From: an uncultured Chloroflexia bacterium
Lineage (GTDB): Bacteria; Chloroflexota; Limnocylindria; Limnocylindrales; CSP1-4
Direction: 5' to 3'
Length of the DNA stretch: 64,000 bases
NCBI GenBank assembly: GCA_963703155.1
Contig: OY969796.1
Coordinates: forward strand, 3,509,875-3,573,874
Shown: piece by piece, positions 8,114 to 32,619 of the stretch
How the letters are laid out: each line of letters starts with the position of its first letter
How positions within the stretch are numbered: the stretch's first letter is position 1
Notes under the pieces: generated by a model
The model's input: the letters and a program-made list of their open reading frames with translations, nothing else
What the model was told of the DNA's origin: nothing
Database searches by the model: none
Translations under genes and position numbers: made by a program

Positions 8114-8996
8114 CGATCGATGGGTGGGGGCCTTTCCGATCAGTAAGGGCGACGGGGCCGGGCGGGGCGGGCGGCTGGTGGGCGGGTGTCGCCGCAGACC
8201 CGGGCGGGGCCGACAGGGCGACGGGGCCGGGCGGGGAGGCAGGGCCCTCGAGCCCGGCGAGCAGCTCTGGGCGCCCGAGGCAGCCGTCCCGCGGGCCGCC
8301 CTCGGCGTAGAGGATGGCCAGCTCGGCGTCACGACCGGGCGGGCCATACCGGTTGCGCGCGACGGTGGCCCGGCACCGCTGCCCGACCACGTCCCGGCCC
8401 AGCCGGATCCAGCCTGAGCGGCGCAACTCGAGCCGCAGCCCGCTCGCCTCGTCCACCGCGGCCGCCAGCCCGCGACCCAACCCGTCGGGCGCCAGCACCA
8501 CGAGCAGCGTCCCCGCCCGCCGCGCCAGCGCCGCCAGCCGACCGAGCCGATCCCCCACCCGCGCCCCGGCGACCGCGGGGTCCCGGCCCTCGGGCAGGTC
8601 CAGCACCAGGAGGTCCACCGTGCGGGCGGCGAGCAGCGAGCCCGCCAGCCCCAGCGCCTCCTCGAGGTCCTGCGGTACGAGCACCACCAGCCACTCCGGG
8701 CGGACGCCGCGCGCCACCGCCTCCACGGGGTCGAACGCACGGGCGAGGTCAAGCCAGGCCACGATGGACCCGGCGGCCTGGGCCTCCGCCGCCACCCGCA
8801 GGGCGAGCGTGGTGCGTCCTGAGCTGGCACCTCCGCGGAGCGCCACGGTGGCCGAGCGCGGCAGCCCGCCCGTTCCCAGCACGGCGTCCAGCGCGGCGAA
8901 GCCCGTGGGGACCACCCGGCCGTCCTCGTGCGCGGCCACGCCCGGGCGTCCGGGCGCGAACGGGTTGCTGGGCGCTGGCGCCGGGGCGACAGGCAC
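7860..8996 (-). CDS. imuA: ImuA' (RecA/SulA-fold SOS mutasome subunit). The C-terminal ~110 codons are Pro/Ala-rich low complexity and overlap imuB
   Basis: ...VVPTGFAALDAVLGTGGLPRSATVALRGGASSGRTTLALRVAAEAQAAGSIVAWLDLARAFDP... resembles ImuA/SulA-like RecA-fold proteins. The first in-frame stop is at 7860. Confidence 0.7.
   Translation of the reverse strand: MPVAPAPAPSNPFAPGRPGVAAHEDGRVVPTGFAALDAVLGTGGLPRSATVALRGGASSGRTTLALRVAAEAQAAGSIVAWLDLARAFDPVEAVARGVRPEWLVVLVPQDLEEALGLAGSLLAARTVDLLVLDLPEGRDPAVAGARVGDRLGRLAALARRAGTLLVVLAPDGLGRGLAAAVDEASGLRLELRRSGWIRLGRDVVGQRCRATVARNRYGPPGRDAELAILYAEGGPRDGCLGRPELLAGLEGPASPPGPVALSAPPGSAATPAHQPPAPPGPVALTDRKGPHPSIDAHASALPVLAAPATPPRPGSPRGGRRHLRLVANRPDRPWRAALDGRDSPRRRSARPGARRPAGDPVGVGAPHGARGGLPGPGA
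8146..8235. repeat. 22-bp direct repeat AGGGCGACGGGGCCGGGCGGGG (8146-8167 and 8214-8235) inside the imuA' tail / imuB start region; encodes PPGPVAL twice
   Basis: Exact repeat seen in the sequence. Confidence 0.6.
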
Positions 8997-9225
8997 GAAG
9001 GCGGGAGAGGCGGAGGCGCGCGGGAGCCCAGCGTGACGGCCCCGCCCTCGGCTGCCATGGCTTCGGCCAGCTCGTCATCGATCGGCAGGGGCGCCACTGC
9101 GAGCGCGCCATCGACCACCGGCGCGGTGTCTCCCCAGCGGCGTGGAGCGGCCGCGCCCCAGCGTGCCTGGAGGGTGGCGAGGGCCTGGGAGACATCGGAT
9201 GCTCGGGTCATCGGACGTCTAATCA

Positions 9226-9241
9226 TAGAACGCATGTTCTA
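9226..9241. promoter_or_regulatory. LexA (SOS) box TAGAACGCATGTTCTA upstream of imuA'-imuB
   Basis: Same half-sites as the dnaE2 box (TAGAAC-N4-GTTCT). Overlaps the ATG of an alternative upstream ORF that starts at 9235. Confidence 0.65.
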
Positions 9242-9689
9242 TTCGTCAAGAGGTCGCCAGCCCTGCGCAGCCGGCGATCCGGGGTTCCTCACCGGAATTC
9301 CATGACACTCACCACATGGCTACCCGGCGGGTCGCGCGTCCATTGCACCCATCCCGCGAGTGCCAGAGCCGCCGGCCCTCCGGAACGCTTCCCCGCCCCG
9401 CGTGCACCCACCGGCCCTGTCGGCGCTTCCCCCGCCCGGCGGGCCGCCCCGTGCCGCGGATCGCGGGCCGCGCCGACGCCCGGGCGCACGTGCCGGCCGG
9501 CCCGGCGGTTCGCCCGCCAATAGAGCCGCTACGTGCACGGAGCGGCCGGAGGACCCGAGGCGGAGCCGGACCCCACACGCGCGCGCCGGATCGCGACCCC
9601 TGCGGATGGACACCTGCGGCGGATGGCCGACCGTCGCGTGCTACACTTCCCGGCCGGTCGCCCCGACACGCTCGGAGGCGTCGCCCCGT

Positions 9690-9765
9690 GGGGATGTAGC
9701 TCAGCTGGGAGAGCACCGCGTTCGCATCGCGGGGGTCAGGGGTTCGAGTCCCCTCATCTCCACCA
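9690..9765 (+). tRNA. tRNA-Ala (anticodon CGC)
   Basis: Cloverleaf folds by hand: acceptor GGGGATG/CATCTCC with the G3:U70 alanine identity pair, anticodon loop TTCGCAT, T-loop GGTTCGAGTCC, 3' ACCA. Confidence 0.9.
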
Positions 9766-9925
9766 CCCCACCGGTTTTCCTGCTGACGTCTCGGCGCGCG
9801 CCTGGCGGCGCCCCAGCGTCGGTGTGTTCCTGGCGGCATGTGCCGCCGGGCGCCGCGCGTTGCAGGCATGTGGCGGGAACGCGCGAGACGCTGACCGAGG
9901 GGGAGCCAATACCGCCGAGGAACGG

Positions 9926-11121
9926 CTAGCGCCGCGGACGCCCAGTCGCGGGGCTCGAGCCGGCCGGTGCCTCATGCTGGGCGCGCGACTCCGCAGGCTC
10001 CAAGCCCTCCATCGCCGGCGTCACCGGCTGCTCGCGGGCCTGCAGCCGCTCAAGGACCACCTCGAGGGCGGCCACGACCGGCACGGCGATGAACGCGCCG
10101 ACCAGCCCGCCAATGGCGCCGCCCGCCAGCAGGCTCGCGATCACGAGGAACGGCGAGATGCCCGCGGCATTGCCGACGACGAACGGCGCGAGGACGTTCC
10201 CCTCGATCGCGTGGATCACGAGGTAGGCGACGAACACGAACGGGAGGGCGTCGGGCTTGAGCGTGGCCGCCACGAGCAGAGCAGGGGCTGCGCCAAGCGC
10301 GGGGCCGACCAATGGGATCGCCTCGGCGACGCCCGCGATCAGCCCCAGCAGGACGGGCGACGGCAGGCCGAGCACCGCGCAGACCGACCCCACCATCACG
10401 CCCATCGCACCCATCAGCACGAGCTGTCCGCGGACCCAGCTGCCGAGCCTGAGCTCCACGCTGTTCCATGCCTCGTCGCACGCCGCGCCCGTCGATGCGC
10501 CGGGAGGTAGCTCAACGCGAACCGCTGGAGGCGCGCACGCTCGGTCATCCAGAAGAAGACCAGCGCGAGCACCGTGGCAAACGAGACGAAGGCGTCGGCC
10601 ACCGAATGGCCAGCCGCCAGGATCTCGGCCGCCGGCACGCCGTGGTTGCTCGACAGCGCGTTCTGCGCCGCGTCGATGAGCGCGACCAGCGCGGTGCCTA
10701 GAGCCCGCGGCGTCAGCGACGACGCCCATTCGCGAGCGTTCGTGAGCGCGGTCGGCACGGCGGCGCCGAGCTGGTCGGCTTGGGCGAGGGTGCCCGGCAC
10801 CACCAGCAGGACCAGGCCGGCGGCGACCGCGATGAACGTGATGTAGACGAGCAGGATCGCGAGGGCCCGCGGCAGGCCGAGGCGCCCGCGCAGGCTGCCC
10901 ACGAGGGGCTCGAGCGAGGCGCCCAGCAGCAGGGCGACGAACACGAGCAGGACCGCCCGGCCGGCTGCGACGAACCCCGCTGCGACGAGCAGGACCACCA
11001 GCGCGCCGAGCGCCGCGCCCGCGCCGCGCCGGAACCAGATGGCGAAGTCCGAGCGGGGCGAGGGGTCCTCGGGGCTGTCGGCGGCGATGGACGCGGGGTG
11101 GAGCGAGAGATCGGGGCGCAT
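9926..11121 (-). CDS. AI-2E family transporter (PerM/UPF0118), split by a frameshift near 10490-10500
   Basis: ORF 10414..11121 gives the N-terminal TM half (...FFWMTERARLQRFALSYLP). A different frame (9926..~10480) gives the conserved C-terminal half (...LGSWVRGQLVLMGAMG...GLIAGVAEAIPLVGPAL...). Confidence 0.75.
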
Positions 11122-11126
11122 GGCGG

Positions 11127-11537
11127 TCAGCGGCCTTCGCTGAGCGCCGCGAACTCCTCCTCGTGCTTCTCGAGCACCTCGTCCGTGGCGCGGTCCAGCG
11201 CGATGAACTCGTTCCTGGCCTCACCGATCGCGCGGATGATCTCGTCGAGCTTGAGCTGCGTGGCCTTGGCCTGGCGATTCGCGCTGGCCTGGATCACGAA
11301 CACCATCCAGAACGTGACGACGGTCGTCGTGGTGTTGATGAACAGCTGCCATGTGTCCGAGAAGTGGAACACCGGGCCTGTGAGCGCCCAGACGACTACC
11401 AGGGCGACGGAGCCCAGGAGGGCGGGGAGGGAGCCCAGCGCAACCGTGACGCGATCCGCGATCTGGTTGAACCACTCCCGCAGCGGCGTCTGCCGCGCAC
11501 CTGCAACGCCGGGCTCACCGGCTCTCACGCTTCTCAT
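11127..11537 (-). CDS. Small integral membrane protein (DUF1003-like), immediately upstream of the AI-2E gene
   Basis: ...WQLFINTTTTVVTFWMVFVIQASANRQAKATQLKLDE.... A 5-nt gap separates its stop from the AI-2E ATG. Confidence 0.5.
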   Translation of the reverse strand: MRSVRAGEPGVAGARQTPLREWFNQIADRVTVALGSLPALLGSVALVVVWALTGPVFHFSDTWQLFINTTTTVVTFWMVFVIQASANRQAKATQLKLDEIIRAIGEARNEFIALDRATDEVLEKHEEEFAALSEGR

Positions 11538-11634
11538 CCGTGCACGCCTCTAGGTTCGCAATATGGAGGAGGAGAGCCCAGCGGCCAGCCAGTGCGCCAT
11601 CCGCCCGCCAGGTGTGCGTTTGGCCGCCCGACGA

Positions 11635-11814
11635 TCAGCGCTTGGACTTCGGCCCCTTGGCAGCCTTGGTCTCCGCTGTCTCGGCTCGCTCCTTGTTGAC
11701 CGTCCGGGCGGCGATCTCCTCCGCGCGGTCCTCGGAGCGCCCCTGGTCCCGCTCGCTCTCCTTGATGTGGTCGTACTGCCGCTCCCGCTTGGGCGACCAG
11801 GCGTTGCTTGGCAT
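11635..11814 (-). CDS. Small charged hypothetical protein (59 aa)
   Basis: MPSNAWSPKRERQYDHIKESERDQGRSEDRAEEIAARTVNKERAETAETKAAKGPKSKR. GGAGGA SD 9 nt upstream. High GC3. Confidence 0.55.
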   Translation of the reverse strand: MPSNAWSPKRERQYDHIKESERDQGRSEDRAEEIAARTVNKERAETAETKAAKGPKSKR

Positions 11815-26688: not shown

Positions 26689-27714
26689 ATGCTCTTCTTC
26701 ACCAGCGGCCGCACCCCGGTGCTCCGCCGCGCTCGCGGCAATCCGGGCCCCTGGTACTCCGCGGCTCCGTCGAAGGACGCCGACGCGGCGATGGAGGAGG
26801 CGATGGAGGAGGCCGGGGCCGCCTTGCGCCATGCCGGCAAGGACATCGCCGAGGCGGCTCGCCAGATCGGCGCCGCGGCGTCACGCCAGATCGGCGCCAA
26901 CGCGGCGGCTGCCGGCGAGGACCTCGCCGACGCAGCCCGCCAAATGGGCGCCGAGGCGTCGCGCCAGGCCCTGCGCAACGCCGCGGCGGCTCGCAAGGAG
27001 ACCGAGCACCAGGTCCGCAGGACCGCAGCCGCCGCGCGCAAGGAGGCGCAGCGCCAGATCCGGCGCACCGCCGCCGCTGCCCAGGCCGAGGCGAAGCGCG
27101 AGATCCGCCACAACGTCAAGGCCGTTCGCGCCAACGCCTCGGCCGTCGCCGATGACCTGCTCCCCGCGGGCCGCGACGCCGTCCGCAAGTCGATGGACAG
27201 GCTCGTCCCCGGACGCAGGAACCGGTCGCGGCGGAGCCCGCTGTTCCGCCTGCTGGCCGTGCTCGCGGTCACCGGGCTTGCCCTGCTCGGCGCGCAGCGG
27301 CTGATGCTGCGCCGGTCGAGCCGGTTGATGGATCGTCGGGACGGGGGCCGCAACCCGGGAAGATCCTCCACGACGGGAACGGCCGACGCGACAGCGGTGC
27401 CGGAGATGGCTGGCACCGTCGGCATCGCCGGCCGCAAGGGCGCTCCGGCGACCCGTGGGTCCGCCGCCCCAGCCGGCCTGGCGTCAGCCGCCACGACGGG
27501 CCTGCCGGAGGAGACGAGCCTCGCGAAGCCCGGCAGCTCCTCCCATCCCCGTTCCGCCGCTCAGCGCCGGCCGTCCGACCTGACGCCGGACGCGGCCACC
27601 GACCCGGTCACGTTCGACCGCGACGCGGGCATCCGCGCGGCGACGGAGGGCATGGAGGCGACCGAGTTGGAGGTTCAGGGCTTCTCCTCGGCGGAGATCA
27701 CCGACGGGGCGTAG
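26689..27714 (+). CDS. Ala-rich repeat protein with one TM segment (hypothetical)
   Basis: Amphipathic repeats ...AEAARQIGAAASRQIGANAAAAGEDLADAARQMGAEASRQALRNAAAARKE... then PLFRLLAVLAVTGLALLGAQ (TM). GAGGTG SD. The plus strand is chosen by operon context. Confidence 0.5.
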   Translation: MLFFTSGRTPVLRRARGNPGPWYSAAPSKDADAAMEEAMEEAGAALRHAGKDIAEAARQIGAAASRQIGANAAAAGEDLADAARQMGAEASRQALRNAAAARKETEHQVRRTAAAARKEAQRQIRRTAAAAQAEAKREIRHNVKAVRANASAVADDLLPAGRDAVRKSMDRLVPGRRNRSRRSPLFRLLAVLAVTGLALLGAQRLMLRRSSRLMDRRDGGRNPGRSSTTGTADATAVPEMAGTVGIAGRKGAPATRGSAAPAGLASAATTGLPEETSLAKPGSSSHPRSAAQRRPSDLTPDAATDPVTFDRDAGIRAATEGMEATELEVQGFSSAEITDGA

Positions 27715-27763: not shown

Positions 27764-28267
27764 ATGGACCGTGACGAGACGGCGATCGACGGGATCATCG
27801 TGCCGCCGTCCGAGGCGGACCGCGCCGGCGAACTGGCGAGCGGCACGATCCAGCGCGGCTTCGGCGGCGACACCGAGCGGCTTCGGCGGTTCGTCTCGGC
27901 GCTGGCCGCCGCCCTCCCGGCGGGCACCATGGTCGCCCTGCGCGGCAGCGCCGTAGTCGGCCGCTCCTTCAGGACCGGCGCGCCGTTCGATGCCCAGGGT
28001 CCGGGCACCAGCGACCTCGACATCGTGGTGCTGGGCGAGACCGTCCACGAGCTGTTCAGCGACGAGGCGCAGTACCTCGGCGGGATCAACACGGTCCCCG
28101 CATCCGACGCCGCTCCCTGGGCCGCCCCCACGCTGGAGGCGGCACGCCGGCAGGCCCAGGCGATCGCGCGCCGCCCGGTGAGCATCCAGGCGCAGGCCCC
28201 CTGGTTCCTGGAGCTGCGCGCCAGAATCCAGAACCAGCCCTATGTGATCCTGGCCCACGACAGGTGA
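27764..28267 (+). CDS. Minimal nucleotidyltransferase-fold protein (167 aa)
   Basis: GS...(D/E)hD motif: LRGSAVVGRSFRTGAPFDAQGPGTSDLDIVVLGE. GCGGAGG SD. Translationally coupled (GTGA) to the downstream EEP gene. Confidence 0.55.
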   Translation: MDRDETAIDGIIVPPSEADRAGELASGTIQRGFGGDTERLRRFVSALAAALPAGTMVALRGSAVVGRSFRTGAPFDAQGPGTSDLDIVVLGETVHELFSDEAQYLGGINTVPASDAAPWAAPTLEAARRQAQAIARRPVSIQAQAPWFLELRARIQNQPYVILAHDR

Positions 28268-29112
28268 CCCTCCGCCTCGTCAGCTACAACATCCGAAGGG
28301 GGGGCCGGCGGCGGAGCCGGCTGATCAGCGAGGTGCTCCGCCGGCTCGACCCCGACCTTGTCGTGCTCCAGGAGGCGATCGACCCCTGGGTTGTCGCCGA
28401 GGTCGGGCGCGAGATCGGCGCCGGCGTGATCCTGGCCGCGCCGGGGCGCTCGGTGGCGGTACTCAGCCGAATGGGCGAGCTCGAGGCGTCGTGGCACCGG
28501 GGCACGCACGGTCCCCGCTACGCCGAGGTCCAACTCCCGTCGATCGACGCCCGGCTGCTTGGCCTGCACCTCACCGCCGGGTTGTCAGGTCGCGGCGAAC
28601 GACGTCGGGCCCGGGAGGCGGAGCAGGTCCTCGCGACGGTTGCCGGTGGTTCCGGCGCGGCGGCCCGCGTCGTCCTCGCCGGCGACTTCAACGCGGTGGC
28701 GCCAGGCGACCTGCCTGCCGTGCGCCAGCTGCCCGCCTGGATCCGCATCCTGCTTCGGGTCGACGGGGGCATCTCGACCCGCGTCATGCAGCGGCTGCTG
28801 GGCGCCGGGTTCGTCGACGCGTTCCGCCTGCGGAACCCCGACACACCGGGTGCGACCGTGCCATCGGACGCACCCGCCGTCCGGCTCGACTACGTCCTCC
28901 TCGGCGCGAGCGTCGCGCCGCGCCTCATCGAATGCCGGGTCGTTGGCGCGGACCCCGTCCTCCTGGCCGCGGCGTCGGACCACCTGCCGATCCTCGTGGA
29001 GCTGGCGACGGAGCTGCCGAGCGACGCGCACGAGGACGCAACGGATCAGCAACGAGACGCCGGGGCGCACCGGCACACTCGCAACGAGGAGCGCGGGACC
29101 ATGCGCCCATGA
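28264..29112 (+). CDS. Endonuclease/exonuclease/phosphatase (EEP) family protein
   Basis: MTLRLVSYNIRRGG...DLVVLQEA...LAGDFNAV...SDHLPILVEL. The start overlaps the NTase stop (GTGA) and the stop overlaps the DoxX start (ATGA). Confidence 0.75.
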   Translation: MTLRLVSYNIRRGGRRRSRLISEVLRRLDPDLVVLQEAIDPWVVAEVGREIGAGVILAAPGRSVAVLSRMGELEASWHRGTHGPRYAEVQLPSIDARLLGLHLTAGLSGRGERRRAREAEQVLATVAGGSGAAARVVLAGDFNAVAPGDLPAVRQLPAWIRILLRVDGGISTRVMQRLLGAGFVDAFRLRNPDTPGATVPSDAPAVRLDYVLLGASVAPRLIECRVVGADPVLLAAASDHLPILVELATELPSDAHEDATDQQRDAGAHRHTRNEERGTMRP

Positions 29113-29693
29113 CCGCACTCGACGCCGGACTGCTGCTGCTCGGCATCGTGGCCGGGCTGACCCTCGCCGGGCACGGCGCCCAGAAGGCGTTCGGCTGGTT
29201 CGGCGGGCCCGGGATGCAGGGCTGGACGAGCGCCGTCGCCGGGTTGGGCTTCTACCCGGCCGCCCCCTTCGCCACGATCGCCATGCTCGCCGAGCTGTTG
29301 GGCGGGCTGGGGCTCGCGCTGGGATTCCTGACCTCGGTCGCTGCCGCGGTCATCGTCGCTCAGTCGGTCGTCATCGTCTTCCACGTCCACTGGAGGCATG
29401 GGTTCTGGAACACCGAGCGCGGGATCGAATATCCGCTCCTGATCGGCGTGGTGGCCGTATTCCTCGGCCTTGCCGGCCGGGGCATGCTCAGCGTTGACGG
29501 GCTCCTCTCGTCTCGGCTCTGGTTCCCAAGCGGAAGTCTGATGCCCGTGCACTCGGTGATGCCGCCCCTCACCGTGCGCGTCGCGCTGCTGCTGGTCGGT
29601 GCCATTGCCGGATCGGCGGCCCTGGCGGTGCCGCGGCTGGCGCGGGCGCTCCGGTCGACCGACAGCGTGGGCAAGCGCGGTGCCGCCCGGTGA
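29109..29693 (+). CDS. DoxX-family membrane protein
   Basis: ...LLLLGIVAGLTLAGHGAQKAFGWFGGPG... is a typical DoxX N-terminus, with four predicted TM segments. Confidence 0.75.
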   Translation: MTALDAGLLLLGIVAGLTLAGHGAQKAFGWFGGPGMQGWTSAVAGLGFYPAAPFATIAMLAELLGGLGLALGFLTSVAAAVIVAQSVVIVFHVHWRHGFWNTERGIEYPLLIGVVAVFLGLAGRGMLSVDGLLSSRLWFPSGSLMPVHSVMPPLTVRVALLLVGAIAGSAALAVPRLARALRSTDSVGKRGAAR

Positions 29694-30022
29694 GCCTCGG
29701 CGACCTGCGGATCGATCCCCACCTCGTCCGGGCCCTCGGCGGCGAGGAGGTGACCACCGGTGCCGAGCTCGACGAGGTGACCGTGGCGCTGACGCCGTCA
29801 CGGCTCGTGGTTGCCGACCCGCAGCGCCTCCGGCTGGACCTTCCCCTCGCCCAGCTGCACCGGGTCCAGCTCGTGGTCGAGAGCGACCGGCCCGGGCTGC
29901 TCACGTTCGTCCCGGTGAACGACCGGTATCCGGCCGTGCTCGTCAGCGTGCCGCGGGAGCAGTTCGAGGAGGCGGGCGAGGTGGTGATGGCCATCGGGCG
30001 TGTGGTGGCGAAGCGGCGATGA
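29690..30022 (+). CDS. Small hypothetical protein, possibly a bacterial PH-like fold
   Basis: 110 aa. The GTG start overlaps the DoxX stop (GTGA). ...LVVADPQRLRLDLPLAQLHRVQLVVESDRPGLLTFVP... Confidence 0.4.
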   Translation: MSLGDLRIDPHLVRALGGEEVTTGAELDEVTVALTPSRLVVADPQRLRLDLPLAQLHRVQLVVESDRPGLLTFVPVNDRYPAVLVSVPREQFEEAGEVVMAIGRVVAKRR

Positions 30023-30044
30023 CGACCTTCGAGGAGATCCGGCC

Positions 30045-30929
30045 ATGACCGTTCAGGACCAGCTCGCTCAAGTCGGCGGGATCATCGGCGACTTCGTGGG
30101 GTCGATCCTCCGCAATCCCGGCGTCCAGACCGGGCTGCGCCTCGCCGTCTGGGGCCTGATCGCGCTGTGGTTCGTGACCGTCTTCTGGGCCTTCCGGGAC
30201 GCCCGCGCCCGGACCCGTAACTGGCTTGTCGCTCTGGGAGCGCCCACCGGCATCGCCCTGGCGACACCGGTGGCGTTCCCCTTGGCGGTTGTCGTCTGGC
30301 GGATCCTGCGGCCGGAGGGGACGGTCGCCGAGGCACGCGAGCAGCAACTGACCATCGAGGCCCTCCGCGCCGCCGCTCAGCGGCCCACGTGCCTGGGCTG
30401 CGGGTCCACGGTGAATGCCGAGTGGCGGCGCTGCCCGTGGTGCCGCACCTGGCTGCAGGCCTCCTGTCCTCGCTGCCAGCGGCTGGTGGAGCTCGGTTCT
30501 GAGGTGTGCCCGTGGTGCGTCGTTGAGTTGGCGGCCGGCGCGCTTGTGCCGCAGGTGGGTTCACCAACGTTGGTGCCGGTGATGGCGGTCTCAGCGGCGC
30601 TGGCCTCCGTGTCGGAGCCCGCCGCCGTCGAGTCGCCGCAGGCCGCGTTGCCAGCTCGCCAGCCACGACGGGAGGAGGTCCGCCTGGTGCCGCCGGAGCC
30701 GGCCACCGCGTCGGCGGCATCCCCGAAGGTTGTCGCCGCGCCCGCCCGCGCCGCGTCGAGCGCGGCGTCCGCGGAGCCGCGCAGGTGCGGCGGACCTCCG
30801 CCGACAGGCCGAGGAGCCGACGCCCAGCAGCTCCGCGCTCTGGTAGGTCGGCCCGGCACTGGGAGCCCCAGCGCAAGGCCGGTGTCATCTGATCTCGTCT
30901 GCGGCTCGGTCGACCGCAACCGGGGCTGA
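30045..30929 (+). CDS. Membrane protein with a C-terminal double zinc ribbon and a Pro/Ala/Ser-rich tail
   Basis: TM helices (LRLAVWGLIALWFVTVFWAF; IALATPVAFPLAVVVW) followed by CLGCGS...CPWCRTW...CPRCQRL...CPWC. GAGGAG SD 8 nt upstream. Confidence 0.6.
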   Translation: MTVQDQLAQVGGIIGDFVGSILRNPGVQTGLRLAVWGLIALWFVTVFWAFRDARARTRNWLVALGAPTGIALATPVAFPLAVVVWRILRPEGTVAEAREQQLTIEALRAAAQRPTCLGCGSTVNAEWRRCPWCRTWLQASCPRCQRLVELGSEVCPWCVVELAAGALVPQVGSPTLVPVMAVSAALASVSEPAAVESPQAALPARQPRREEVRLVPPEPATASAASPKVVAAPARAASSAASAEPRRCGGPPPTGRGADAQQLRALVGRPGTGSPSARPVSSDLVCGSVDRNRG

Positions 30930-30971: not shown

Positions 30972-31304
30972 ATGACCGAGTCGATGTCAGCTGGCGCCAC
31001 GTCCGCCAGCGGCCACCCGGGCGAGGACTTCGTCTGCCGCCATTGCGCCTGCGAGATCATGGTCAAGCACTGGGGCGAGCCGAGGTCCCACGCCGACAGC
31101 GGCGCGTTCGTCTGCCACTGCGGCCGCCAGATGGAGCCCGAGCACACCAGGCAGAGCGGCCAGATGGAGATGAGCCAGAGCCGCGCGCAGGGTGGCGATG
31201 CGTTCAACCAGGAGGACTTCCTGGGCCAGGGCGGGGGTGCTGGCGAGGCGACCGACATGGACCGCACGTCGTCCACCACCCCCAGCCCCGGCGGCGGGCG
31301 GTAG
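30972..31304 (+). CDS. Small Cys/His-rich hypothetical protein (putative metal-binding)
   Basis: ...FVCRHCACEIMVKHWGEPRSHADSGAFVCHCGRQMEPEH.... GGAGG SD. Confidence 0.5.
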   Translation: MTESMSAGATSASGHPGEDFVCRHCACEIMVKHWGEPRSHADSGAFVCHCGRQMEPEHTRQSGQMEMSQSRAQGGDAFNQEDFLGQGGGAGEATDMDRTSSTTPSPGGGR

Positions 31305-31319
31305 CGCTGGCAGGACCCC

Positions 31320-32083
31320 TTGCCCCTCCACGTCGGCACGTCGGGCTTCGACTATCCGGAGTGGGTCGGCCGGATCTACCCCCGGCGGCTCCCGGCGGGC
31401 GAGCGGCTGGCGTTCTATGCCACGCTGTTCCTGCGGTCGAGCTCAACGCCACCTTCTACCGGCTGCCAACGCGGAAGCAGTGCGAGCGGTGGGCGGCGCA
31501 GGTGCCGCCCGACTTCCGGTTCGCGGTCAAGGCCTCGCGCTACCTGACGCACGTGCTCCGGCTGCGGCAGCCCCACGAGGCCGTGGAGCGGATGCTCGAT
31601 CGCATCGAGCCGCTGGGCGACGCCTGGGCCCGTGCTCGTCCAGCTGCCGCCCGACTCCCCCTGGACGCCGAGGCGCTCGACGCCAGCTCGACGGCCTTCG
31701 ATGTCTTCGGCCCCGCCGGGCTGCGACGTCCGAAGTGCCGTGGAGCCGCGCCATGAGACCTGGTTCGTGCCCGAGGTCGAGGCGATCCTGCGGGACCACC
31801 GCGCCGCCCTCGTGCCGGGCGGACCGTCGCGGCCAGCGCTCCCCTGAGTGGCGCACGGCAGACTGGCGGTACATCAGGATGCACGAGGGCGTGGCGTCCC
31901 GGCGGGCTGCTACGACTCAAGGGACCTCACGCCCTCGCGACGCGGCTGTCGGAGGAGGGCACGGGCGCCACGGCCGACTGGGTCTTCTTCAACAACGACG
32001 GCCACGCCTGCGCGCCCGCCAACGCGCGCACGCTCAGCCGTCTCGCCGATCACGCCGGCTTCGAGGTCGTGGCGCCATCGTAG
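31320..32083 (+). pseudogene. DUF72 (UPF0759) family gene broken by at least four frameshifts
   Basis: Conserved DUF72 blocks lie in different frames: MPLHVGTSGFDYPEWVGRIYPRRLPAGERLAFYATLF | VELNATFYRLPTRKQCERWAAQVPPDFRFAVKASRYLTH | LVQLPPD...VEPRHETWFVPEVEAILRDHRAALV | SPEWRTADWRYIRMHEG | ...ATRLSEEGTGATADWVFFNNDGHACAPANARTLSRLA. Confidence 0.7.
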
Positions 32084-32534: not shown

Positions 32535-32619
32535 GGGTCGGTCGGGCAGGTGGTGAGCCCAAGGGTCTGTAAAACCCTCGCCTTCGGCTGTGGCAGTTCG
32601 ATTCTGCCCCGGCCCACCA
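32535..32619 (+). tRNA. tRNA-Tyr (anticodon GTA) with a long variable arm
   Basis: Acceptor GGGTCGG/CCGGCCC, D-stem GGGC/GCCC, anticodon stem AGGGT/ACCCT with loop CTGTAAA, variable hairpin GCC-ttc-GGC, T-arm GGCAG-TTCGATT-CTGCC, ACCA. Confidence 0.85.

Follow-up and report, generated by a model that had tools for sequence, protein, structure and literature searches.

A translationally coupled nucleotidyltransferase-phosphodiesterase gene pair as a candidate toxin and enzymatic antidote

We analysed a window of 64,000 nucleotides (nt), the whole stretch of DNA whose first lines stand above, from an uncultured bacterium of the Limnocylindria (contig OY969796.1). An earlier note had joined five consecutive genes at 27764-30929 into an obligately co-expressed unit, a candidate signalling or defence-like module. 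We find that the functional unit is a translationally coupled two-gene cassette, in which g1, a minimal nucleotidyltransferase (NTase), is followed by EEP, a phosphodiesterase of the PF03372 superfamily. The pairing and its coupling recur across phyla, both active sites are conserved, the g1-type domain sits in the toxin slot of Rhs proteins, and an EEP of the same subfamily travels with it there. We put the probability at roughly 0.5 that g1 is an NTase toxin and EEP its enzymatic antidote, comparable to DarT/DarG. A transferase toxin with a hydrolase that reverses it is a known type of system; the NTase and EEP folds are new in these roles. The features of the cassette, with lengths in amino acids (aa), are as follows.

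27764-28267, forward strand: g1, 167 aa, divergent minimal (Pol-beta-fold) nucleotidyltransferase, the proposed toxic activity of the pair
28264-28267, forward strand: GTGA start/stop overlap of g1 and EEP, the sole conserved junction of the five genes
28264-29112, forward strand: EEP, 282 aa, predicted ExoIII/APE-like Mg-dependent phosphodiesterase, the proposed enzymatic antidote

The neighbourhoods of g1 were sampled in two ways, through look-ups of exact proteins (loci L001-L013) and through a scan that took one genome for each species. The latter gave 394 loci among ~185,000 species genomes, a carriage of ~0.2%, and 80 of the 394 were retrieved for comparison. These 80 loci span at least five phyla (Chloroflexota, Acidobacteriota, Gemmatimonadota, Eisenbacteria, Anaerolineae and others). 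An EEP homologue starts no more than 75 nt 3' of g1, on the same strand, in 79 of the 80; the junction is -4 nt in 44 of these 79 loci and -1 nt in 8, and never exceeds 41 nt. The single exception (L060, 8498-11967) has a 2.8-kb permease-like open reading frame (ORF) of 932 aa (8900-11698) splitting g1 from EEP, and both genes look intact. When every ORF of the 80 loci was clustered all against all, g1 and EEP were found in 80/80 and any other real family in 31 at most. Neighbours that recur are clade-specific and unrelated in theme: a histidine kinase, ABC transporters, an aminotransferase, an ECF sigma factor, a radical-SAM enzyme and PadR. Reciprocally, EEP homologues picked blind to g1 (n=2) had g1 directly 5' in both cases. 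The idea that the NTase and the EEP protein act as a functional pair, raised in the earlier note, is strongly borne out by these counts (79/80 loci and 2/2 in the reciprocal direction).

Two proteins that looked like natural fusions of g1 with EEP (P0160 and P0175) turned out to be frameshift read-throughs: what joins their domains is out-of-frame, Arg/Pro-rich junk. In L006 (6633-7372) and L010 (6273-7431), both from ERZ250395xx assemblies, g1 and/or EEP are apparently frameshifted; this is probably sequencing error and not decay, because the adjoining genes are fragmented as well.

The window g1, searched alone, has no match in Pfam, NCBIfam or the PDB sequences. An AF2 model made from a 54-sequence alignment (pLDDT 94, pTM 0.90) has the alpha/beta core fold of NTases. 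R60-G61-S62 is invariant, D84-x-D86 is conserved in at least 90% of sequences and D115 is invariant or nearly so (54- and 25-sequence alignments), with T82-S83-D84-L85-D86 among the residues that fit the NTase signature. The protein thus carries the marks of the Pol-beta-like NTase superfamily, hG[GS], a DxD on the next strand and a third downstream carboxylate. The spacing from S62 to D84 is 21 residues (GSX21DXD) with no length variation within the family, and a conserved 11-residue insert containing PFDxxGPG accounts for this spacing rather than GSX10DXD. A GS-to-DxD spacing of 13, obtained for half of the sequences, was discarded because it came from a DAD triplet that lies within the conserved loop. 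The nearest solved structures are MNT antitoxins of HEPN-MNT systems (HI0073, 8xeh, 5yep and 7ae2), and PF01909 is the most frequent weak match among family members. Foldseek with the g1 model returned nothing significant, MNT proteins included, and CdnG appeared only at E 0.27, which makes g1 a distant member of the NTase fold. The g1 family is small and self-contained: 1.84 billion representative proteins, searched with its profile, yielded 389 matches, and generic NTases were not reached. No nucleic-acid-binding accessory domain was found in g1. Its motifs and modelled fold suggest that g1 is an active but highly divergent minimal nucleotidyltransferase.

Other identities for g1 were rejected. 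Its closest relatives by structure and sequence are not ANT or Lnu antibiotic nucleotidyltransferases, the identity that the earlier note, if joined to unrelated neighbours in other genomes, had named as fatal to its own proposal. A CD-NTase or CBASS cyclase is also discounted, given the 167-aa length, the minimal fold and the lack of a PADLOC CBASS match; nothing here supports a role in second-messenger signalling. PF08843/DUF1814 matched neither the window g1 (E<=1) nor any of 54 members of its family (E<=10). Because Pfam, NCBIfam and PADLOC models do not cover g1, current annotation pipelines and defence or toxin finders cannot detect it. About one third of g1 homologues (P0071-P0100 and P0112-P0142; for example L008 6001-6822) bear an N-terminal extension of 100-170 aa. 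It looks alpha/beta, with the pattern LILVVAR...VAVVPV, has no Pfam or NCBIfam match, and may serve the NTase as a domain for regulation or sensing. We considered that these extensions might be the membrane-protein gene found upstream of g1, and rejected this since there is no similarity between them.

EEP matches PF03372 at 54.8 bits (cut-off 24.5, E 1.4e-14), and its catalytic residues N9, E37, D141, N143, D209 and S238-D239-H240 are invariant in 20 diverse members. It therefore has both marks of the superfamily, a score above gathering and the catalytic N, E, D-x-N, D and D-H. In a profile comparison against PDB the best match is Neisseria NExo/ExoIII (2e-12, over the full length), followed by LINE-1 EN, APE1 and TDP2; TDP2 aligns only in part and scores far below ExoIII. 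The ExoIII/APE1 alignment is full-length and keeps the catalytic N, E, D-x-N, D and S-D-H together with the RLDY motif. However, EEP falls far below the cut-offs of the Xth equivalogs (TIGR00633, 30.2 vs 99.05 bits; TIGR00195, 28.7 vs 182.55 bits) and so is ExoIII-like but not an Xth orthologue. It belongs to a distinct subfamily that is always paired with g1, and this partner is routinely mislabelled 'exodeoxyribonuclease III'. The protein consists of a core of ~250 aa and a non-conserved, charged, low-complexity C-terminal tail (residues ~250-282; 29010-29112). Relatives with a 248-aa EEP have a 99-nt spacer before the DoxX gene instead of an overlap, and in the window the tail reads through this former spacer, creating the ATGA overlap with DoxX. 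Neither g1 nor EEP has a signal peptide or transmembrane segments.

What points to g1 as the toxic component is its occurrence at the end of Rhs proteins. P0143 is a real fusion, with the RHS repeat-associated core TIGR03696 at 80-136 (72.7 bits, cut-off 32.5), then a hydrophobic segment and a g1-type NTase domain at 246-393 with all motifs intact. P0233, with a different Rhs core (TIGR03696, 59 bits, cut-off 32.5), again has a g1 domain behind it. The toxic payload of Rhs/YD polymorphic toxins is the domain that comes after the core (PMC3482391). By its position, then, the g1-type domain appears to serve two independent Rhs polymorphic toxins as their toxic C-terminal tip, and this placement suggests that it is toxic enough to be used as an Rhs warhead.

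A close relative of P0143 (83-88% identity across the matched part) is encoded on two metagenome contigs, L096 and L097, which are nearly the same in sequence, come from sibling samples and were counted as one genotype. On both, the Rhs-NTase gene is followed by a 110-aa ORF of no known family and a 252-aa EEP. This EEP belongs to the same subfamily as the window EEP (hhalign probability 100%, E 6.6e-52, full length; PF03372 2.9e-16), carries no delivery domain and has its gene in the position of immunity genes. Among 80 loci with that Rhs core, the NTase tip occurs in L096/L097 only and EEP in L096/L097 only. A control locus with the same core and hydrophobic segment (L098, 28-3380) carries other tips and small immunity-like genes (120 and 200 aa) and no EEP. 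Because EEP is found only beside the NTase-tipped Rhs protein, we conclude that it travels with the NTase domain, even where that domain serves as a secreted warhead in an unrelated organism of 50% GC. The control locus is itself a polymorphic-toxin array of the classic kind, in which a core end with its tip and the 120-aa gene precedes an orphan core end with a different tip and the 200-aa gene.

In the mechanism that we propose, g1 would transfer a nucleoside monophosphate from a nucleoside triphosphate onto an essential cellular target. EEP would then hydrolyse the phosphodiester made by g1 and restore the target, acting as an antidote or immunity factor, as DarG does for DarT or Tri1 for Tre1. 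With the toxin gene first and the antidote gene joined to it by a 4-nt overlap, the antidote would be translated whenever the toxin is. The likeliest target would be a 3'-OH end of a nucleic acid, for example the acceptor end of tRNA, and a protein hydroxyl would be less likely; the ExoIII-like family includes 3'-to-5' exonucleases and 3'-phosphodiesterases, making a nucleic-acid 3' end the most plausible substrate. From the Rhs placement and the conserved pairing we infer that stand-alone g1 would be toxic, that EEP would probably undo the damage done by g1, and that this would take place at such an end. The fuller version of this reading, in which a new family of minimal-NTase toxins exists both as a chromosomal cassette and as an Rhs warhead, an ExoIII-like EEP erases the adduct rather than binding the toxin, and the targets are likely to be nucleic-acid 3' ends, is put forward more tentatively and is somewhat less probable than the toxin-antidote assignment itself.

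The same logic operates in DarT/DarG (PMC5179494) and in the type VI secretion pair Tre1/Tri1, in which a transferase toxin is followed by a downstream hydrolase that removes the adduct. In DarTG, DNA is ADP-ribosylated reversibly and the hydrolase serves as the antitoxin (PMC5179494). Transferase toxins are also found as tips of secreted polymorphic toxins, with the immunity gene downstream. The folds and the chemistry are different, however: ADP-ribosyltransferases (DarT, Tre1) are matched there with macrodomain or ARH hydrolases (DarG, Tri1), whereas the window pairs a Pol-beta-fold NTase with an EEP-fold phosphodiesterase for which reversal would be the analogous role. For an NTase as toxin, and for detoxification by 3' trimming, MenT/AbiEii (DUF1814) offers a precedent: MenT NTase-fold toxins extend tRNA 3'-CCA ends, and the 3'-trimming RNase PH and PcnA counteract them (PMC7450476, PMC10435456, PMC11541572). 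In contrast to these toxins, g1 is half the size and lacks a PF08843/DUF1814 match, and its partner is a downstream hydrolase, whereas the MenA/AbiEi antitoxins are upstream binding or phosphorylating proteins. As in Rhs/YD systems (PMC3482391), the g1-type domain is a C-terminal tip after an RHS core, with cassette genes downstream, and stand-alone homologues of tips are common there. The window g1 is itself stand-alone: it starts 49 nt after an unrelated membrane-protein gene and has no Rhs core or trafficking domain nearby. In a 2012 survey of polymorphic toxins (PMC3482391) the only NTase-fold tips are RelA/SpoT-like, and EEP-type immunity is missing; full-text literature searches turned up no description of an MNT-like NTase paired with an EEP/Exo_endo_phos enzyme.

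If the toxin-antidote reading is right, EEP would be the first antitoxin or immunity enzyme of its fold, and the pair a nucleotidylylation counterpart of DarT/DarG. A new toxin family and a new class of antidote would then join the few systems built on reversible modification (DarTG, toxSAS with SAH, Tre1/Tri1), and the arsenal of interbacterial warfare would be linked to a cassette on the chromosomes of soil phyla that are abundant but uncultured (Limnocylindria, Acidobacteriota).

Several observations weigh against this reading. In a tree of concatenated g1 and EEP, Chloroflexota and Acidobacteriota form cleanly separate clades with few outliers, so that the stand-alone cassette looks mostly vertically inherited. 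Neither an integrase nor a transposase occurs among the neighbours of the pair in the 80 loci, and searches for g1 relatives among 72,556 plasmids, 50,697 phage genomes and 2.9 million viral contigs (IMG/VR) came back empty. A search of PADLOC-DB v2 gave zero matches for all five proteins at E<=1. Vertical inheritance without a link to mobile elements or a PADLOC match is an atypical profile for a toxin-antitoxin or defence module. Further, g1 is usually acidic and EEP usually basic (median isoelectric point 4.7 and 9.3; an acidic g1 with a basic EEP in 56 of 74 pairs), the reverse of the common pattern of basic toxin and acidic antitoxin, and the MNT structures nearest to g1 are MntA-type antitoxins that AMPylate their partner toxin, suggesting the opposite polarity. 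The Rhs evidence comes from two protein clusters and one recovered genotype. There, the 110-aa ORF between toxin and EEP (L096 879-1211, L097 646-978) is in no other g1-EEP locus; it could be the true immunity protein, or a conventional binding immunity protein that acts alongside EEP.

Mostly vertical descent, stable synteny in Limnocylindria and the missing mobile-element signal would suit a housekeeping or accessory pair for nucleic-acid end-processing or repair. In it, blocked 3' ends would be cleaned by the ExoIII-like enzyme and nucleotides added or activated by the NTase, the two perhaps forming a two-subunit enzyme of fixed stoichiometry; such a pair would fit desiccation-prone soil bacteria. 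The ExoIII/APE-like affinity of EEP agrees with this, as do DNA and stress genes near some loci (Top1B and Ni-superoxide dismutase in L003/L006/L010, Mfd and an AlkZ-like gene in L008). However, these neighbours are clade-specific and not common across phyla, g1 has no accessory domain for binding nucleic acids, the pair is as sparse as 394 of ~185,000 species genomes, and a repair enzyme would be unexpected as an Rhs warhead; we regard repair as unlikely, though the least unlikely of the alternatives. Only slightly behind it comes a type VII arrangement of the HepT/MntA kind, in which the EEP nuclease would be the toxin and g1 the antitoxin, acting by (oligo)AMPylation and/or binding. The MNT structures, the charge pattern of the pairs and the intact active site of EEP within a nuclease clade all speak for this polarity, and the order of NTase first and nuclease second agrees with mntA-hepT expression constructs (PMC7641770). 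But the slot for the toxin in two Rhs proteins is held by the g1 domain and not by EEP, whose Rhs-locus member lacks a delivery domain and takes the immunity-gene position, and for this reason we demoted the HepT/MntA-like polarity: the Rhs tips indicate that the NTase is the toxic component. The partner differs as well, since EEP belongs to PF03372, no HEPN match was found in the five proteins, and there is no RX4HXY-like acceptor motif. The MNT proteins of HepT/MntA carry GSX10DXD (PMC7641770, PMC11586414), whereas g1 has GSX21DXD with its family-specific PFDxxGPG insert, and the Foldseek search had no significant MNT match.

A non-toxic writer and eraser, by which a third-party protein or small molecule is reversibly nucleotidylylated for regulation, is a more doubtful proposal again. 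An NTase next to a phosphodiesterase fits its logic, and EEP could in that case be a TDP2-like tyrosyl-nucleotide phosphodiesterase, that is, a de-AMPylase: TDP2, an EEP enzyme that cleaves tyrosyl-5'-phosphate bonds, is among the profile matches, and the HEPN-MNT literature postulates a phosphodiesterase, still to be named, that removes AMP (PMC11586414). Yet the TDP2 matches are the partial, weak ones, the 80 loci hold no conserved third gene that might be the target, tight coupling of a writer to its eraser would be a futile cycle, and the Rhs-tip context implies a harmful rather than a regulatory activity.

The remaining three genes of the proposed module, and the gene upstream of g1, are as follows.

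29109-29693, forward strand: DoxX-family membrane protein, 194 aa, a lineage-specific passenger
29690-30022, forward strand: g4, 110 aa, small soluble protein of PH-like fold, a lineage-restricted passenger
30045-30929, forward strand: g5, 294 aa, double-zinc-ribbon membrane protein with a low-complexity Ala/Pro/Ser tail, a passenger
26689-27714, forward strand: single-pass membrane protein, a class-level neighbour of g1 outside the universal core

The layout of the five genes is as the earlier note described it. The overlaps were read from the sequence (GTGA 28264-67, ATGA 29109-12, GTGA 29690-93), g4 and g5 are separated by 22 nt, and GAGGAG, the Shine-Dalgarno sequence, precedes the ATG at 30045. 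The GC content of the five ORFs is 0.85-0.93 at third and 0.41-0.62 at second codon positions, in a window of 72.5% GC; this is the expected coding signature and all five were judged to be coding. The assignments to NTase, EEP, DoxX, PH-like and double-zinc-ribbon families or folds also stand, by Pfam, motifs and fold. DoxX matches PF07681 (48.8 bits vs 23.6, E 1.1e-12), has 5 hydrophobic segments and belongs to the DoxX family. No bPH family of Pfam matched g4 at E<=1; its PH-like fold, a 7-strand sandwich capped by a C-terminal helix, was seen all the same, and it has no sequence family, with only 16 close clusters among 5.8 billion proteins. For g5 the match to PF12773 (DZR) is marginal (28.2 vs 27.3 bits, E 2.2e-6), but the protein has the double zinc ribbon, with four CxxC motifs at 116, 130, 141 and 155 (residues 116-158) and 2-3 hydrophobic segments in its N-terminal part, including 31-49 and 66-84.

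What failed was the extension of the module beyond the pair. Only the closest relatives, those with a g1 at ~75% identity or more, have DoxX, g4 and g5 after the pair: L014 (g1 83%), L011-13 (78%) and a JGI contig (g4 72%). All three are missing from 79 of the 80 species-level loci; they are also missing from L001, where g1 is 73% identical and the order is g1, EEP, a small protein and DUF72. The second and third overlaps are not conserved; in the JGI relative EEP and DoxX are 99 nt apart and DoxX and g4 43 nt, while g1 and EEP still overlap by 4 nt, and only this overlap is conserved beyond close relatives. Homologues of g5 lie ~5.1-5.2 kb 3' of g1 in more distant Limnocylindria (L003/L006/L010 and L015/L017/L024), past an ABC transporter and Top1B. 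We conclude that the genes for DoxX, the PH-like protein and the zinc-ribbon protein share this transcription unit as lineage-specific passengers, outside the system, and that the tie of the pair to two membrane proteins is a lineage-specific juxtaposition. The five genes also belong to a longer co-directional array (a GDE-like glycosidase, the membrane protein, g1, EEP, DoxX, g4, g5, a small Cys protein and DUF72) with short gaps throughout (9, 49, -4, -4, -4, 22, 42 and 15 nt in order), which makes the five-gene boundary arbitrary. Overlaps of 4 nt are routine in compact, high-GC operons, a caveat to reading them as more than chance, and this locus illustrates how arguments from overlaps in a single genome can over-extend a module, as only one of the three is evolutionarily constrained. 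A five-gene signalling or defence-like module, with the NTase and EEP signalling to or through the other three proteins, is thus largely refuted by lack of conservation. In its favour are the co-directional, tight packing and the three overlaps in this genome and its closest relatives; with g4 confined to its 16 close clusters and PADLOC silent on all five proteins, it is by far the least probable of the readings weighed here. PHROGs likewise matched none of the five.

A scan for promoters and terminators found none, although at 72% GC such a scan is uninformative. The N-terminal part of the upstream membrane protein is helical and expanded by repeats, and the C-terminal part bears the conserved motif DRxAxxEGMGT. 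Its homologues adjoin g1 in L001 (5353-5988), L003 (5353-5997), L004 (5488-5970), L006 (5362-5997), L010 (5424-6059) and L011 (5225-5995); it has no Pfam or PHROG match, is absent from the Acidobacteriota loci and is found throughout Limnocylindria. In L003/L004/L010 a second small membrane protein of ~120 aa lies 5' of it.

Downstream of g5, at 30972-31304 on the forward strand, is a 110-aa protein with CxxC and CHC motifs, possibly zinc-binding and with no family match. L001, L011 and the JGI relative keep it too, with g5 or EEP on one side and DUF72 on the other. The DUF72 homologue of the window (31320-32068, forward strand) gives tblastn matches in two frames with no single intact ORF (ORFs 31320-31547 and 31043-31756), and is either a frameshifted pseudogene or the product of assembly errors; in L001, too, DUF72 is in two pieces. 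A gene for tRNA-Tyr (GTA) is located at 32535-32619 on the forward strand, ~1.6 kb 3' of the operon, with no integrase or repeat seen nearby. In one Limnocylindria clade (L003, L004, L006, L010 and L094) a type IB topoisomerase gene (Top1B_N_bact and Topoisom_I) lies ~3.5-4.5 kb 3' of g1. A functional tie between Top1B and the ExoIII/TDP2-like EEP is speculative. In L003, L006 and L010 the Top1B gene is followed by those for a DZR membrane protein and a Ni-superoxide dismutase.

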